This document shows positions 24,321 through 44,000 of a stretch of 64,000 nucleotides of DNA, piece by piece (the first letter of the stretch is position 1; every line of letters starts with the position of its first letter). Source of the stretch: an uncultured Pelagibacteraceae bacterium (GTDB taxonomy: Bacteria > Pseudomonadota > Alphaproteobacteria > Pelagibacterales > AG-422-B15); assembly GCA_902619105.1 (NCBI GenBank), contig CACNCV010000002.1, forward strand, positions 172,436 through 236,435, written 5' to 3'. The notes under the pieces were generated by a model. The model ran no database searches. It was given only the letters and a program-made list of their open reading frames with translations, and was not told where the DNA came from. The translations under genes and the position numbers were made by a program.

Positions 24321-25013
24321 ATGAGAAAATTAAATTGCTTTGTTACCGGTGCATCTAACGGAATAGGAAGTGAAATTGCTATTCAGTTATCATATTTTTC
24401 AAAACACATATATATAAGTGCACGTAATATAAAGAAACTTGAGATGGTTCACGATCAAATAATAAAGCAAAACTGTAAATGTACGATCGTTCCATTAGAT
24501 CTATGCGATGAAAATGGCATTGAAAACTTAGCAAAACAGATACTTATTAAAGATAATTCCTTGGATGTGCTAGTCTTATCCGCAGGTATGATTTATCCAC
24601 TTTCACCAATTGATTCAATTGAATTTAATAAATTTAATGAAGTATTAACACTCAATTACTTAGCAAACTTTAGAATGATTAAAAATTTTCACCCGTTGTT
24701 AAAAAATTCCACGGACTCATATATTGCTACAATTTCATCACTAAAAGACACAACAAAAGAATTCTATTGGGGAGTTTATCAGCCTGTGATGACTGCACTA
24801 AATGAATTGTTATTGATGTATGCAAACGAAAATAAAAATACAAGCATAAAAACGAACATTTTTTGTCCAAAGGCAGTAAATACTAACCTTAGAGAGATAA
24901 TCATGCCCGGTGAAGATAAAAGTAAAATTAGTAATCCAAAAGATGTTGCCGAAAAAATAGTGAAATTAATCTTTAAAACAAAGGAAACAGGTCGGATTAT
25001 AGAAATTAATTAA
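24321..25013 (+). CDS. YciK-like short-chain dehydrogenase/reductase with a degenerate catalytic motif
   Basis: VTGASNGIG, YWGVY, PKAVNTNLR...PGED; usual position after cvpA-(purF). Confidence 0.8.
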   Translation: MRKLNCFVTGASNGIGSEIAIQLSYFSKHIYISARNIKKLEMVHDQIIKQNCKCTIVPLDLCDENGIENLAKQILIKDNSLDVLVLSAGMIYPLSPIDSIEFNKFNEVLTLNYLANFRMIKNFHPLLKNSTDSYIATISSLKDTTKEFYWGVYQPVMTALNELLLMYANENKNTSIKTNIFCPKAVNTNLREIIMPGEDKSKISNPKDVAEKIVKLIFKTKETGRIIEIN

Positions 25014-25827
25014 CATATGGATTTTTTGAATTCTTGAATTCATAAATGATTGGTATACCATCAATTTTAAAATATTCCCTAAATGCATTATCAAAGTATT
25101 TTTGAAATAAGTTTGGCGTTTTCTTCTGAGTATTGACAAAAACTTTAAATTTTGGAATTTTATTATCAGTTTGAACAATATATTTAGGTTTAATTTCAAC
25201 TTTATTAATTTTTGGATAATTGGCTTTTTTATTTAAATAGTTTATAAATTTATTTAGTTTCTGTTTTTGTATTCTTATTGATTCTAATTTTTTTTTAGTA
25301 ATAATTTTCTCCAATACATTATTAACACTAATATTCTTTTTTGCAGAAATAAATTCAATATTTATTAACTTATGTTTACTATAATTATTTTTGAGAAATT
25401 TATTTATATTTGATTTAAATTTTTTTTTATCTTCAACAATATCAATTTTATTGAATATAAAAAAAAGTAATTTATATTTATTAATTACTAAATCAGCTAA
25501 TCTAAAATCTTGCTTTGTGATATTCTCTAATGAATCAATTAAGAGAATTACTGCGTCAACGCTATTAATTAATCTTATTACCTCCAAGTTACGAACCATT
25601 TCTTTTTTTTCTTTTACTTTACTCCTTCTTCTTAAGCCTGGAGTATCTACAATTATAAAATCATATTTCTTATGCTTAAACTCCTTTTTATATAGAGATT
25701 TTGTTAATCCATATTCATCGCCTACAGGCGATAAATATTCCCCTAGAAGCGTATTAAATAATGTTGATTTTCCAGAATTAGGTTTACCAATAATACCTAA
25801 ATTTAACTTATCTAACCTCATAGACAT
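25006..25827 (-). CDS. der: Der/EngA-like GTPase with a single G domain plus KH-like domain
   Basis: G1 GKPNSGKS, G3 DTPG, G4 NKID, G5 ISAK; C-terminal IKPKYIVQ...PKFKVF...FREYFKIDGIPI; immediately after bamB. Confidence 0.8.
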   Translation of the reverse strand: MSMRLDKLNLGIIGKPNSGKSTLFNTLLGEYLSPVGDEYGLTKSLYKKEFKHKKYDFIIVDTPGLRRRSKVKEKKEMVRNLEVIRLINSVDAVILLIDSLENITKQDFRLADLVINKYKLLFFIFNKIDIVEDKKKFKSNINKFLKNNYSKHKLINIEFISAKKNISVNNVLEKIITKKKLESIRIQKQKLNKFINYLNKKANYPKINKVEIKPKYIVQTDNKIPKFKVFVNTQKKTPNLFQKYFDNAFREYFKIDGIPIIYEFKNSKNPYVN

Positions 25828-27106
25828 TTGAATTTTTATCTGTCAAATAAATAGCATTTGACAATATTAATGGTGGTACCAAAATACCCCTGATAGCAAT
25901 AGACTCATTTGAGAGGATTTCTCCTGTAATTGGAGATACAATCTTAATCTCTCCAAAATATGAAATGTTATAAATAAGATTATTTATCAAATAAGGGCCA
26001 AGCCACAAGTTAAGGTTTTTAATATTTTTTCCTGACCTAAATTTTGAGAGATCAGTTATCCAATATACCTCACCGCTGATTCTATCTAAACAAATCAATT
26101 TTCCATCCTCATCGATTACGTATATTTGATTTCCTGACACTAAAGGTGTTCTATAGCCTGATAGATCAATTCCCCAATTGCGTTGACCGTTTAATGCATT
26201 TACTGAAACCAGCTTTCCATTTGAACTTAAAGAATATATCGTTTCTCTATCAATGACCGGGCTTGCTGAAATATCTTTAATATCAAAATTACTTACCATT
26301 GAAATTTTTGACACATTTTCTGACCATACCGGTTGACCAGTATCGTGAATAAAGGCGACTAACTCTCCGTTACTAAAAGGAGCTATAATTGTATTCTCAA
26401 AAGCAACGGGCGAGGATGTAAATAAATTCTTTTTTGTTTCAGATATAGTTTGAAATGACCAATTTATGTTGCCATCATTTAAATTAATCGAAAAAATTCT
26501 ATTATCCGCTGATATAAAATAAATATATCCCCTATATATCAAAGGTGGAGACAGTATTGGATATTCAATCCGATTAGACCAAATTTCTTCACCATCAATT
26601 GTATTAAATAACTTAATTTGTCCATATGCATCAACAAACACTAATTGATTATCAAAATATGCTATACCTCCTCTGATTACCTCATATTTTTTAATACCTT
26701 CAGGTTTTAGATTGGCCTCTAAAAATATATTTTTGGTATCAACATTAATGCACTTTAAAAGTCCTGTGTTTAAAACGTGACAAATATTATTCTCAAAAAA
26801 AATAGGTTGGATAATATTTACTGGACCTTTTTTTCCAGAAATGATCTTTGATTTTTTTTTAAATAGTGAACTCGTAGCTAAATTATTTAGGTTATTTGAT
26901 GGATTTAAAAAATGTTGAGACCAAAAAAAATTTTCTCTTGCTGGATCAATTGCTATATTTGAGGTATCAAGGTTTAATGTTTCAGATATTTCAGCATCAT
27001 AACTTAAAATTGGAAAGCTTCTATTATTATCCTGAATTTCATCATTCTTCGAGCAAGAGATTAGAATTATACTTGTTATAAATAAAATAGTAAATTTGTT
27101 AATCAT
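25808..27106 (-). CDS. bamB: BamB-like PQQ beta-propeller lipoprotein
   Basis: Lipobox ILISC, repeated G...W propeller motifs, position between a YfgM-like gene and der. Confidence 0.85.
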   Translation of the reverse strand: MINKFTILFITSIILISCSKNDEIQDNNRSFPILSYDAEISETLNLDTSNIAIDPARENFFWSQHFLNPSNNLNNLATSSLFKKKSKIISGKKGPVNIIQPIFFENNICHVLNTGLLKCINVDTKNIFLEANLKPEGIKKYEVIRGGIAYFDNQLVFVDAYGQIKLFNTIDGEEIWSNRIEYPILSPPLIYRGYIYFISADNRIFSINLNDGNINWSFQTISETKKNLFTSSPVAFENTIIAPFSNGELVAFIHDTGQPVWSENVSKISMVSNFDIKDISASPVIDRETIYSLSSNGKLVSVNALNGQRNWGIDLSGYRTPLVSGNQIYVIDEDGKLICLDRISGEVYWITDLSKFRSGKNIKNLNLWLGPYLINNLIYNISYFGEIKIVSPITGEILSNESIAIRGILVPPLILSNAIYLTDKNSNVYEVR

Positions 27107-27110
27107 TCTA

Positions 27111-27740
27111 TTATGATAATTCTATAAACTTAATCGCTCTATTTCGAATTTCTATTGGTAAATCTAAATTACTTATTAAGTCTTCAAAATCTTTTTTAGC
27201 TTCTGCATAATCTCCAAGTATAAGTTTTCTTACGGCTATAATTTCCAAAAATGAATATTTAAATGGGCTGCTTTCGATTCTCTCATTAGTCAAATTTAAA
27301 TTAGAAGCTAAATCGTCAGGGTCTTCCATTTTAGCCATAAATAAAAGGTAAGTCGCTAAATCTCTAATGACTACATCATATTCAATATTTTCCGCTATTT
27401 TCTCTAATGTAGAGTATCCCTCTTCTATATTTCCATTTTGTACTTGTAAATTTGAAGTTCTTAATGCTGCTAAACCAGATAGGTACTCATTATTAGAAGA
27501 AATAATTTCTTCATATAGTGGAATTTGTTTAATAAAATTATTGTCATTTGTTGCATTGATAAATGTTTCTACAAGAATTTCATTTTTTGTCTTACTAATT
27601 GAGACATTTAATTGGTAACCAATTACCGTAAATACAATAACTATTATTACTGAAACTGCATATAAACCATACTTATTCCAAAGTTTAGAGAGCTTTTCCC
27701 TTCTTAGATCTTCATCAATTTGCCTTATAATATCACTCAT
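27111..27740 (-). CDS. YfgM-like / DUF2659 TPR membrane-anchored protein
   Basis: MSDIIRQIDEDLRREKLSKLWNKYG plus a single TM and helical repeats. Confidence 0.82.
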   Translation of the reverse strand: MSDIIRQIDEDLRREKLSKLWNKYGLYAVSVIIVIVFTVIGYQLNVSISKTKNEILVETFINATNDNNFIKQIPLYEEIISSNNEYLSGLAALRTSNLQVQNGNIEEGYSTLEKIAENIEYDVVIRDLATYLLFMAKMEDPDDLASNLNLTNERIESSPFKYSFLEIIAVRKLILGDYAEAKKDFEDLISNLDLPIEIRNRAIKFIELS

Positions 27741-27742
27741 TC

Positions 27743-28567
27743 TTATTTTCCGTTGTTACGTACAATTTGAGGTCGCATATGATAAATATGGTCTGATGAA
27801 GGAAAAGTTCTATCTTTAACTTCTTCAGCATACTTACTTACAGCTTTCTTAATAGTGTTATCTAAATCGACATATTTTTTTACAAATTTTGGAGCAACGT
27901 TTGTTAATCCCAACATATCTTCTGTTACTAATATCTGACCATCACAATTTGGAGATGCTCCTATTCCAATAGTAGGAATGTTTAAAATTGAAGTTATTTC
28001 TGCGGCTAATGGCTCAGCCATGCCCTCTAAAACCACTGAAAATGCTCCCGCTTTTTCAACAGCAACTGCATCATCAATATATTTTTGCCATTCAGATTTT
28101 ACTTTTCCTCTTACTTTATAACCTCCATCTATCAATACACTCTGCGGTTGAAGACCTATATGGCCCATAACGGGAATTGAGCTTTTTGTAAGATGTTCAA
28201 TTGTTTTGGACATTTTTTGACCGCCTTCTAACTTAACACCGTTGCAATTGGTTTCTTTCATAACACGAGCTGCATTCATAAATGCTTTTTCAACAGATTC
28301 TTCGTAGGTTCCAAACGGCATATCAACAATTACACAAGATTTATTTGAAGCCCCAACAACAGACTTCGCATGCTTAATCATTTGTTCAAGCGTAACTTGA
28401 AGTGTATTCTCATAATCATAAAGAACCATCCCGAGCGAGTCTCCAACCAACATTAAATCAACCTGTTCGTCAATAGCTCTAGCAATTGGTGCCGTATAAG
28501 CAGTTAGACATACAATTGGACTCTTTCTTTTGAGTGATTTTATATCATTAGCTGATTTTCTTAACAT
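27743..28567 (-). CDS. panB: 3-methyl-2-oxobutanoate hydroxymethyltransferase
   Basis: LTAYT, LVGDSLGMV, DMPFGTYE, GVKLEGG, GHIGLQPQ, IGIGAS..CDGQILV. Confidence 0.98.
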   Translation of the reverse strand: MLRKSANDIKSLKRKSPIVCLTAYTAPIARAIDEQVDLMLVGDSLGMVLYDYENTLQVTLEQMIKHAKSVVGASNKSCVIVDMPFGTYEESVEKAFMNAARVMKETNCNGVKLEGGQKMSKTIEHLTKSSIPVMGHIGLQPQSVLIDGGYKVRGKVKSEWQKYIDDAVAVEKAGAFSVVLEGMAEPLAAEITSILNIPTIGIGASPNCDGQILVTEDMLGLTNVAPKFVKKYVDLDNTIKKAVSKYAEEVKDRTFPSSDHIYHMRPQIVRNNGK

Positions 28568-41033: not shown

Positions 41034-44000
41034 TTGATGATAGATTTTTTAGTAGATAGAAAGCGAACTGCTATAGCCTTACTTATAGTGCTTATATTTG
41101 CTGGAATATTTGGTCGTATTAATATTCCAATAGAAAATGAACCAGAGATTGTAATACCAGTTGTTTATGTAGGAGTAGGATTAACTGGTATATCACCACA
41201 AGATTCAGAGAGGCTTCTTTTAAAACCAATCGAGGAAGAAGTGAGGGCTATCGAAGGCATTGATAAACTTCAAGGGTTTGCATTTGAAAACTATGCAGCC
41301 GCCGTTATTCAATTTGAAGCAGCTGAAACAATGAAAAAATCATTAGATAAAGTAAGAGATGCCATCAATGATGCTAAAGTAAAATTTCCCGATGATGCGA
41401 AAGAACCTGTTGTAAGCGAAGTATCGTTTGAAGACCAGCCAACTGTTATAGTATCAATTGACTCACCCACTGCGTCTGAAAGGTACCTGCTAAATTTGGC
41501 TCAAGAAATAAAAAAAGAAATTGAACTTATTCCCTCAATTTTTGAAGCTGAGCTATTAGGCGCAAGGGAAGAGCAATTGGAAGCTACGCTAAATAGATCG
41601 CAAATGGAAAACTATAACATTTCTTTTGCTGAAATTATTACCTCAGTATCAAATAACAACCAAGTTGTTACTGCAGGTGAAATACAGACTGGTCAAGGCC
41701 AATTTGCTGTAAATGTACCCGGATTATTCGAAACAGCTAGAGATGTATACGAGCTACCCATTCGCTCAACCAACAACAGTACTGTTAATTTAGCCGACAT
41801 CTCAACTATTAAAAGAAATTTTAAAGACAGAGAGAGTTACACTAAAGTAAATGGAGAGCCTGGAATTTCTCTATTAATAAAAAAAGGTAGAGGACGAAAT
41901 GTAATTGATACAATAAATGAAGTTGATGAGGTTGTTCAAGGCTTTAAATCTAAAGTGCCAAATGATGTAAACTTTACTTACGTCATGGACTCCAGAGAAA
42001 TAATGGAAGACAACGTAAATTCATTACAAGGTAATATTTTACTCGCTACAATATTTGTGATCATAGTAACAATGCTTGCGCTGGGGATTAGATCTTCATT
42101 AATTGTTGGCTCTGGTATACCCGTATCAATACTGATTGCTCTGTTTGTTTTGTATGTGCTTGGCTATGATTATAATTTTATGGTTATTTTTGGTATCTTG
42201 GTTGCTCTTGGGATGTTAATTGACGGCTCTCTCGTTGTTGTAGAGCTTGCAGATAGAAAGATGCTTGAAGGCTTTGATAAACAAAAGGCATATATCTATT
42301 CAGCGAAACGGATGTTTTGGCCAATTGTTGCATCAGCAGCAACAACCCTTGCGGTTTTTATACCTCTTTTTTTCTGGCCAGGCGTTAGTGGGCAATTTAT
42401 GCGAATGCTGCCTGTAACGATTTTTGTTGTTTTATTTATTGCGCTTATTTTCAGTTTAATGTTTGTGCCTGTAATTGGAAGTGTATTTGGCAAACCTTCT
42501 AATGCCTCTGCTAATTCATTTAAAAAACTTGGTTCTGATCAAAATTTTAATCTTAAAGATATCAGTGGCTATATAGGGGTCTATGTATCTATACTTGATA
42601 AACTATTGAAAAGACCAGTCCTGACACTTTTATCAGTTTTTATTATACTATTTACAATTATTTCAAGTTTCTTTTCCTTTGGAAAAGGAATGATATATTT
42701 CTCAACTGGTGATCCTTATTTTGGAGAAATAAAAATATATGCACGAGGAAACCTTTCTATCGATGAAGTAAATAAGCTTACAAGTGATGTTGAGCTTATT
42801 GTTAATGAACACTCTGGTATAAAAAATTACTTTCTTCAAACTGGTCAATTCAGTAATGTTGGTGGACCTGGAGGTGGTAATTCAGAAGATTTAATTGCGA
42901 CGGCGTATTTTGAATTTGTTGATCGAAATCAAAGAAAAAACGGACACGAAATTATTTCTGAATTAAGAGAGCAATTTTATCAGATTAAAGGAATTAAAAT
43001 TGAAGTTTCTGAACAAACGGGCGGTCCACCTGTTGGAAAAGATATTCAAATAAGAATAACAGGCCCATCCAGTTCAAGCATTCTTGATGTTACAAAAGAT
43101 GTTAGAAAATATATAGATGAAAATGTAAATGGTCTTGTTGGAATAGAAGATACACTGCCTGTGCCTCTGGTCGATTGGGAGCTTATTATTGATAAACCAA
43201 AAGCAGCTCAATTTGGCGCCGATATATTTACAATTGGAAAAGCTGTTAGCCTAGTAACTAATGGAATAATGATTGGAAAATACAGACCTGACGACGTCGA
43301 TGATGAACTTGAGATTTTTGTCAGATACGCAGATAAAGAACGATCAATTGATCAACTCGATAATATAATGATTGAAACAAGGTCAGGGCAAATTCCAATT
43401 AGTAATTTTGTTGAAAAAAAACCAAAAAAGAATGTCAGCTTCATTCGAAGGTATGACACACGTAATGCAATGTATATTAAAGCAAACGTTGAAGAAGGCC
43501 TAATTGCAGCCGATAAAGTAAATGAGATTCAAAAATGGACAGATGAACAAAATTACCCTTCATATATTGATATTGCCTTTGGTGGTGAAAATGAAGAGCA
43601 AACAGAGTCAATGAAGTTTGTGACACAAGCATTCATTATTTCAATTCTTATTATGGCTGCATTATTAGTTACACAATTCAACAGTTTTTACCAAAGTTTC
43701 ATAATCTTAACTGCTGTAATAATGAGTACAGCAGGCGTATTTTTTGGACTATTGGTATTCAATCAACCTTTCTCAGCTATAATGCATGGTGTGGGAGTTG
43801 TATCCTTAGCAGGAATAGTTGTTAATAATAACATAATCTTGATTGATGCATTTAATTTTGTAAAAGAAAAAGATAATGATAATTTATTTAACAGCATTTT
43901 AAAAGCCTGTGCACAGAGATTAAGGCCAATTTTCCTAACAACAATAACAACCATGCTTGGCTTAATCCCACTTGCAATGAATTATAGTATTGATCCTATA

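Follow-up and report, generated by a model that had tools for sequence, protein, structure and literature searches.

A der gene without its first G domain at the panB-yfgM-bamB-der locus of a Pelagibacterales genome

The window analyzed here, a stretch of 64,000 nucleotides from an uncultured Pelagibacteraceae bacterium (order Pelagibacterales; contig CACNCV010000002.1 of assembly GCA_902619105.1), carries a short version of der (engA). Der, which assists 50S assembly, is regarded as essential and almost universal in bacteria and is treated as an antibiotic target; its tandem G domains (GD1 and GD2) are both its defining and its least understood feature. We found the short gene at the end of a panB-yfgM-bamB-der run (Table 1), a gene order that is the same in other genera; the yfgM-like slot between panB and bamB is also filled in LD12-type loci. 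Its product of 273 amino acids (aa) contained a single G domain (MMR_HSR1, residues 10-127, 77 bits) and the KH-like domain typical of Der (PF14714, 56.5 bits versus a cutoff of 27.3), the latter matching the complete model (positions 1-81 of 81) and representing the sole KH_dom-like match in the whole genome. The Der model TIGR03594 was aligned through positions 175-432 of 432 only, with positions 1-174 unmatched, and the score of 202.8 bits was under the equivalog cutoff (306.7) because half of the model was unmatched. The initial annotation, which had described a GTPase with one G domain and the KH-like domain of Der at the yfgM-bamB-der locus, was therefore confirmed by the open reading frame (ORF), the Pfam domains, the TIGR03594 alignment and the neighboring genes. 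Its remark that the overlap with the 3' end of bamB leaves no upstream room also held: the der start codon (ATG) lies 20 nt within bamB and the der frame remains open for just five codons further upstream (a 278-aa open frame), and therefore there is no space for a second G domain. On profiles of the two domains that we derived from 35 alphaproteobacterial Ders, the complete G domain scored 137 bits for GD2 and 81 bits for GD1. These results support the presence of a der orthologue that has been cut to one G domain and the KH-like domain at its conserved locus. We consider it very probable that the gene was vertically inherited within the Pelagibacterales, and that GD1 and the linker between the two domains were lost in the ancestor of the order. 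The protein is best named a GD1-less Der variant, as it descends from Der but has neither the tandem G domains nor a score above the curated cutoff.

Table 1. Genes and domains at the der locus (positions are those of the window)
Feature	Position	Strand	Evidence
Short der: 273-aa GD2+KH protein without GD1 and without inter-domain linker	25006..25827	-	Pfam MMR_HSR1 + KH_dom-like; TIGR03594 175-432
G domain of GD2 type, residues ~7-180	25288..25809	-	GD1/GD2 profile scores, motifs
Der-type KH-like domain, residues 185-265	25033..25275	-	PF14714
bamB, complete, 432 aa; final 20 nt overlap der start	25808..27106	-	PF13360 1e-41; TIGR03300 reaches model position 375 of 377
yfgM-like membrane TPR protein	27111..27740	-	Weak matches, both sub-cutoff: PF10858 26.4 bits (cutoff 27.7), PF09976 TPR_21 18.4 bits (cutoff 25.5)
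panB, head of the conserved panB-yfgM-bamB-der run	27743..28567	-	ORF; Pantoate_transf gene at equivalent position in loci L166-L169
Short-chain dehydrogenase, convergent with der, 8-nt overlap with der 3' end, marks end of der unit	24321..25013	+	PF00106 7.5e-26

The short form was not restricted to the window genome (1.24 Mb in 10 contigs, ~90% complete, ~30% GC). We screened 301 genomes of the order that were at least 85% complete; the short form, at lengths of 269-290 aa, was the only Der in 34 of them, which included closed genomes and belonged to six genera and both families. The TIGR03594 cutoff was reached in none of the 301 genomes and no full-length Der was present among them, while 267 had no Der match at E <= 1e-35. 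In a smaller set of 41 relatives, all der matches spanned model positions ~173-431, and their open frames had 272-290 aa save one. In that case (G009, locus L019), the frame around the short der comprised 397 aa versus ~278-286 aa, which suggests a missing upstream stop or a fusion of the bamB and der frames. A two-domain Der above the cutoff was found in 194 of 201 other alphaproteobacterial genomes, which represented 166 families. More than 100 short-form protein clusters (271-285 aa) were recovered from independent metagenomes (Tara, ENA, NCBI and JGI), and one orthologue of 277 aa recurred without a single difference in 205 assembly blocks, all of which had the panB-yfgM-bamB-der order. 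A search of 1.84 billion library representatives gave, among its 150 best matches, four close relatives of the query, of which one was a complete short form of 277 aa and three were fragments (121-186 aa); the remaining 146 were two-domain Ders of 423-613 aa, all but one of which aligned best via GD2 and KH. A contig scan with the short-Der alignment returned mainly the GD2 halves of unrelated full-length Ders. Thus, the check in related genomes that had been proposed for this gene showed a clade-wide short form, which is the sole Der in each sampled genome of the order that carries der. Three genomes of the window's own genus (G008, G047 and G049; 88-91% complete) had no detectable short der, for which assembly gaps or further independent losses are possible.

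Neither a lone GD1 nor a full-length der was found elsewhere in the window genome, either with TIGR03594 or in a six-frame search with our own GD1, GD2 and KH profiles, which gave a single KH match and the same list of GTPases. The other TIGR03594 matches in this genome were Era (in an rnc-era-recO cluster), an HflX-like ORF, and ORFs sized for MnmE, IF2, Obg, LepA and YchF; Era and the HflX-like ORF here, as well as MnmE in one genome of genus g3 (the largest genus of the order), were inspected directly, and the others were assigned by ORF length. Five relatives that were 99-100% complete contained, in the TIGR03594 search, only the short Der and the usual GTPase-sized ORFs, with no small GD1-like ORF. 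The genome searches and these complete relatives together bear out the absence of any second der or separate GD1. The HflX-like ORF itself (window positions 41736-42638; genome C2:41371-42273; locus L006 1072-1974) encodes 300 aa from its first start within a 379-aa open frame, which is under the typical HflX length, and may be another trimmed ribosome-associated GTPase.

All five GTPase motifs could be recognized in the short Der: G1 GKPNSGKST (residues 14-22), G2 T42, G3 DTPG (61-64), G4 NKID (126-129) and G5 SAK (161-163). Across 117 short-form clusters (265-290 aa, from the same four sources), residues G14-T22, T42, D61-G64, K127, D129, S161 and many KH residues were at least 97% conserved, and the NKxD motif was whole in 112 of the 117; the conserved G1 stretch includes the Asn that coordinates K+. 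The G2 motif TRD had initially been described as degraded to TKS. The sequence does read GLTKS at this site, but its G2 threonine, T42, is invariant. We found dN/dS ratios (nonsynonymous to synonymous substitution rates) of 0.045-0.16 for the short der at unsaturated dS values of 0.13-0.41 in within-genus pairs, and of 0.07-0.19 for the neighboring bamB in the same genome pairs. Therefore, the short der is under normal purifying selection, level with that on bamB, and the suggestion that it might be a decaying copy is refuted by these ratios and by the motif conservation. The short protein is probably a functional GTPase maintained by selection.

The AlphaFold2 model of the short Der had a mean per-residue confidence (pLDDT) of 83.5 and a predicted TM-score (pTM) of 0.81, with low confidence in the switch regions only and pLDDT values of 85-94 over the KH part. 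A Foldseek search returned B. subtilis YphC on a 45S particle (9bsl_W; query-normalized TM-score (TMq) 0.85, root-mean-square deviation 2.4 A over 262 columns), and further structural matches were EngA crystal structures, E. coli EngA on the 50S subunit (3J8G) and trypanosome mt-EngA. All Der matches in the Protein Data Bank aligned through the half that comprises GD2 and KH (such as residues 177-428 of the B. subtilis protein), and in the predicted structure GD2 and KH pack as one rigid unit, as in solved Ders.

Loss of late-50S GTPases extended beyond GD1 in this order. Genus g3 has lost der altogether: the gene was absent from 151 of 151 genomes that were at least 90% complete, in which the short-Der profile gave only weak G-domain matches (38-63 bits) and PF14714 gave no match. 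These weak matches were mostly open frames of 416-499 aa, one of which was inspected and proved to be MnmE (mnmE-mnmG synteny), and none of them covered the KH domain. In two g3 loci (L037 1480-4259 and L034 1225-3997), bamB was followed by an ORF of 142-143 aa and then by a P-loop ORF of ~350 aa, which looks ZapE/AFG1-like when its sequence is read by eye. YihA/EngB (TIGR03598) exceeded the cutoff in none of 41 genomes of the order but did so in 113 of the 121 Alphaproteobacteria from outside it, among them a genome of endosymbiont size (0.5 Mb). Era also seems to be missing from genus g3, as the 275-282-aa Era match of other genera was not returned in the ten nearly complete genomes of the g3 set G027-G040 by searches that were not based on an Era model. 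A closed outgroup genome (G343, 1,410,127 bp) encoded a two-domain Der of 425 aa with a degenerate GD1 (L079 1501-2736, minus strand), in which G1 reads GKVNEGKS, the NKxD (G4) and G5 regions are deleted and the C part scores ~0-6 bits; GD1 may be decaying there in parallel, or this Der may represent an intermediate stage of the process. Overall, the late-50S GTPase set seems to have been reduced step by step in streamlined marine Alphaproteobacteria.

Several properties of characterized Ders are relevant to what the short form might do. In full-length Der examined by cryo-electron microscopy, KH lies at the peptidyl transferase center (PTC; H80, H89, H92 and H93) and GD2 under the displaced H68, the two shifting as one rigid piece, and the mobile GD1 contacts L1, H82 and H88 and controls specificity (PMC4245960). 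In vitro, E. coli EngA without GD1 (deltaGD1-EngA) binds 30S, 50S and 70S, unlike the full-length protein, and an isolated KH domain is sufficient for 30S binding (PMC2673443). The GD2-KH unit of B. subtilis forms a stable protein, has micromolar affinity for GDP and GMPPNP and is stimulated by K+, but its GTP hydrolysis is ~150-fold slower than that of GD1 (PMC3466195). By analogy with these proteins, we propose that, after the ancestor of the whole order had lost GD1 and the GD1-GD2 linker and retained GD2 and the KH-like domain, the short Der would bind late pre-50S particles via KH and GD2 in its GTP state, docking at the PTC, and would be released after slow, probably K+-stimulated GTP hydrolysis on GD2. 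Without the GD1 switch it would be a permanently unmasked slow GTPase, from which the GD1 layer of nucleotide-state regulation is gone; the jobs known for GD1 in E. coli and B. subtilis, namely masking of the KH surface, contact with the L1 stalk, H82 and H88, subunit specificity and most of the GTPase activity, would have been lost with it.

Four observations weigh against this proposal or against the ancestral loss on which it builds. First, E. coli genetics indicates that both G domains of Der matter, so a GD1-less Der may not do the canonical job. Second, the basic residues of the KH domain are partly altered relative to the alphaproteobacterial consensus. Third, the absence of der from genus g3 suggests that the pathway may be dispensable in the order, which weakens the case that 50S assembly specifically is what the short form is needed for. 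Finally, the window genome is just 90% complete, and the absence of GD1 leans partly on the complete relatives. We slightly favor the view that late 50S assembly in the order runs on a drastically reduced GTPase set: YihA/EngB is absent throughout, Der is cut to GD2-KH in most genera, and the largest genus has lost Der and possibly also Era. Should the short protein still mature the 50S subunit, GD1 would be a dispensable regulatory add-on and GD2-KH the minimal functional Der.

The strongest of the alternatives is that the GD2-KH remnant no longer takes part in 50S assembly but is retained for a different RNA- or ribosome-linked function, such as 30S or 70S binding. The promiscuous binding of deltaGD1-EngA and the 30S binding of the isolated KH domain (PMC2673443) would be compatible with such a role, as would the fact that genus g3 lives without der, and the order-wide absence of YihA/EngB implies that the canonical late-50S GTPase pathway had already been remodeled. 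However, the conserved locus, the Der-type KH domain and a predicted GD2-KH geometry that is the one of the ribosome-bound state are what a canonical role would lead one to expect, and we saw neither a new domain nor a new partner gene. We regard a repurposed remnant as improbable on this balance.

Less probable still, and indeed quite unlikely, is a chimeric origin, in which unequal recombination would have joined a GD1 front (G1-G2) to a GD2 back (G3-G5), as was initially suggested. To analyze the two segments separately, we split the G domain before beta3 into a 50-residue front containing G1-G2 and a C part, and scored both on the alphaproteobacterial profiles and on broad profiles from 142 diverse bacterial Ders, a positive difference indicating GD2. 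With the alphaproteobacterial profiles, the C part favored GD2 by 30-52 bits, and the fronts of the short Ders scored about equally on both domains (-6 to +4), whereas cross-validated true fronts gave -28 +/- 6.5 for GD1 and +30 +/- 9 for GD2. In addition, three front positions (F in STLFN, together with alignment positions V39 and D41) were GD1-like when set against the alphaproteobacterial consensus sequences, and from column 50 onward each diagnostic column in which the short Ders matched either consensus was GD2-like. These observations would be expected of a chimera. The reason for this GD1-like appearance is that the GD2 fronts of Alphaproteobacteria carry a lineage-specific sequence (LTGPEAG), which this clade does not have.

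On the broad profiles, the C part from G3 on favored GD2 by 20-53 bits, in agreement with the initial reading of this part, and all 13 short-Der fronts examined were on the GD2 side as well (+2.6 to +7.3); the window protein itself gave +53 for the C part and +4.6 for the N part. True GD1 fronts averaged -15.1 +/- 4.4 (range -23.1 to -2.2) and true GD2 fronts +17.2 +/- 6.1 (range -1.1 to +28.7), so that no true GD1 front scored above -2.2, and in two reduced genomes, genuine GD2 fronts that are just as divergent gave +5.0 and +9.8. The absolute scores of the short-Der fronts were at cross-domain background, i.e., only a generic P-loop signal remains. The resemblance of the front to GD1 is thus only partly correct: F of STLFN and the V and D of SPVGD are present, but they are interleaved with the GD2-like LLGE and I50, and the resulting order (F, LLGE, V.D, I) alternates between GD1-like and GD2-like residues in a way that one crossover cannot yield. 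Moreover, 9-10 residues precede beta1 in the short Der, as at the end of the linker before GD2, versus 2-4 before GD1, and in a tree of 42 GD1, 42 GD2 and 13 short-Der G domains, GD1 formed one branch that excluded every short Der (support by SH-aLRT, an approximate likelihood-ratio test, 90). The alphaproteobacterial profiles, which leave the first 50 residues undecided, were dropped as a basis for a chimera after the broad profiles and the tree had been obtained.

Least credible, to the point of being almost negligible, is an artefact or decay, i.e., an assembly collapse between two similar G domains or a neutrally drifting pseudogene: two homologous G domains make a collapse conceivable and the TIGR03594 score is under the family cutoff, but the identical architecture in closed genomes and dozens of independent assemblies excludes a collapse, and the der dN/dS of 0.05-0.16, equal to that of bamB, the lack of stops in the window gene and in any of 13 aligned orthologues and the conserved GTPase motif residues speak against drift.

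Loss of GD1 from an ancestral two-domain Der appears to have occurred once. The 13 short Ders of the tree came from three genera and two families and were not recovered as one clade in a free search; two independent truncations were not inferred from that topology, since a tree in which they were constrained to one clade had a likelihood 54 units above the quick free search (p-value of the approximately unbiased test, p-AU, 0.985). The one-clade tree, the shared synteny and the shared N-terminal boundary fit one truncation event in an ancestor common to the whole order.

We found no published description of a GD1-less Der in SAR11/Pelagibacter in the open-access literature. A natural, selected and order-wide GD1-less Der amounts to an evolutionary deletion experiment, which suggests that the core function resides on GD2-KH and that GD1 is regulatory. 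The Pelagibacterales are the most abundant order among marine bacteria, and the der-less genus, if truly so, would show that a free-living cell can lose a factor treated as universally essential. Sister genera without der or yihA may provide a system for asking what makes such GTPases dispensable, with slow growth, a single rRNA operon and changes in rRNA or ribosomal proteins as possible factors. There is also a practical consequence: TIGR03594 was below the cutoff in every genome of the order and TIGR03598 in every one tested, and as single-copy markers both would be read as missing, which would skew completeness estimates and marker-based phylogenies.

Compared with known systems, the short Der resembles Era (NF000908/TIGR00436) in length (~280-300 aa) and in having a single TRAFAC G domain with a KH-type RNA-binding domain C-terminal to it; however, the KH domain of Era belongs to another family and binds 16S rRNA at its 3' end, the Era model NF000908 matched only the G domain of the short Der (86 bits versus a cutoff of 237), and a separate era gene is present in the window genome. 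The model for YihA/EngB/YsxC (TIGR03598), a single-domain GTPase of ~200 aa, gave 55.6 bits versus a cutoff of 124.45. With canonical Der/EngA/YphC (TIGR03594; 1MKY, 2HJG, 3J8G and 9BSL), the short form has in common the orthologous yfgM-bamB-der locus, a GD2-type G domain with intact G1-G5, a hydrophobic residue following DxxG and a P-loop that contains the K+-site Asn, the Der-specific KH-like domain and a predicted GD2-KH geometry similar to that of ribosome-bound YphC. It differs by lacking GD1 and the linker, the very feature that named the family ("double Era-like"), with the consequent 203 bits versus 306.7, and by its G2 region, which reads GLTKS where Der has GTTRD. The closest counterparts in domain content are the engineered deltaGD1-EngA of E. 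coli (residues 213-503) and GD2-KH of B. subtilis, which fold and bind guanine nucleotides and ribosomal subunits (PMC2673443, PMC3466195). These constructs are laboratory truncations that were not shown to support growth; they bind 30S, 50S and 70S without discrimination and hydrolyze GTP very poorly, whereas the natural short Der has been shaped by selection in the absence of GD1 throughout the order.
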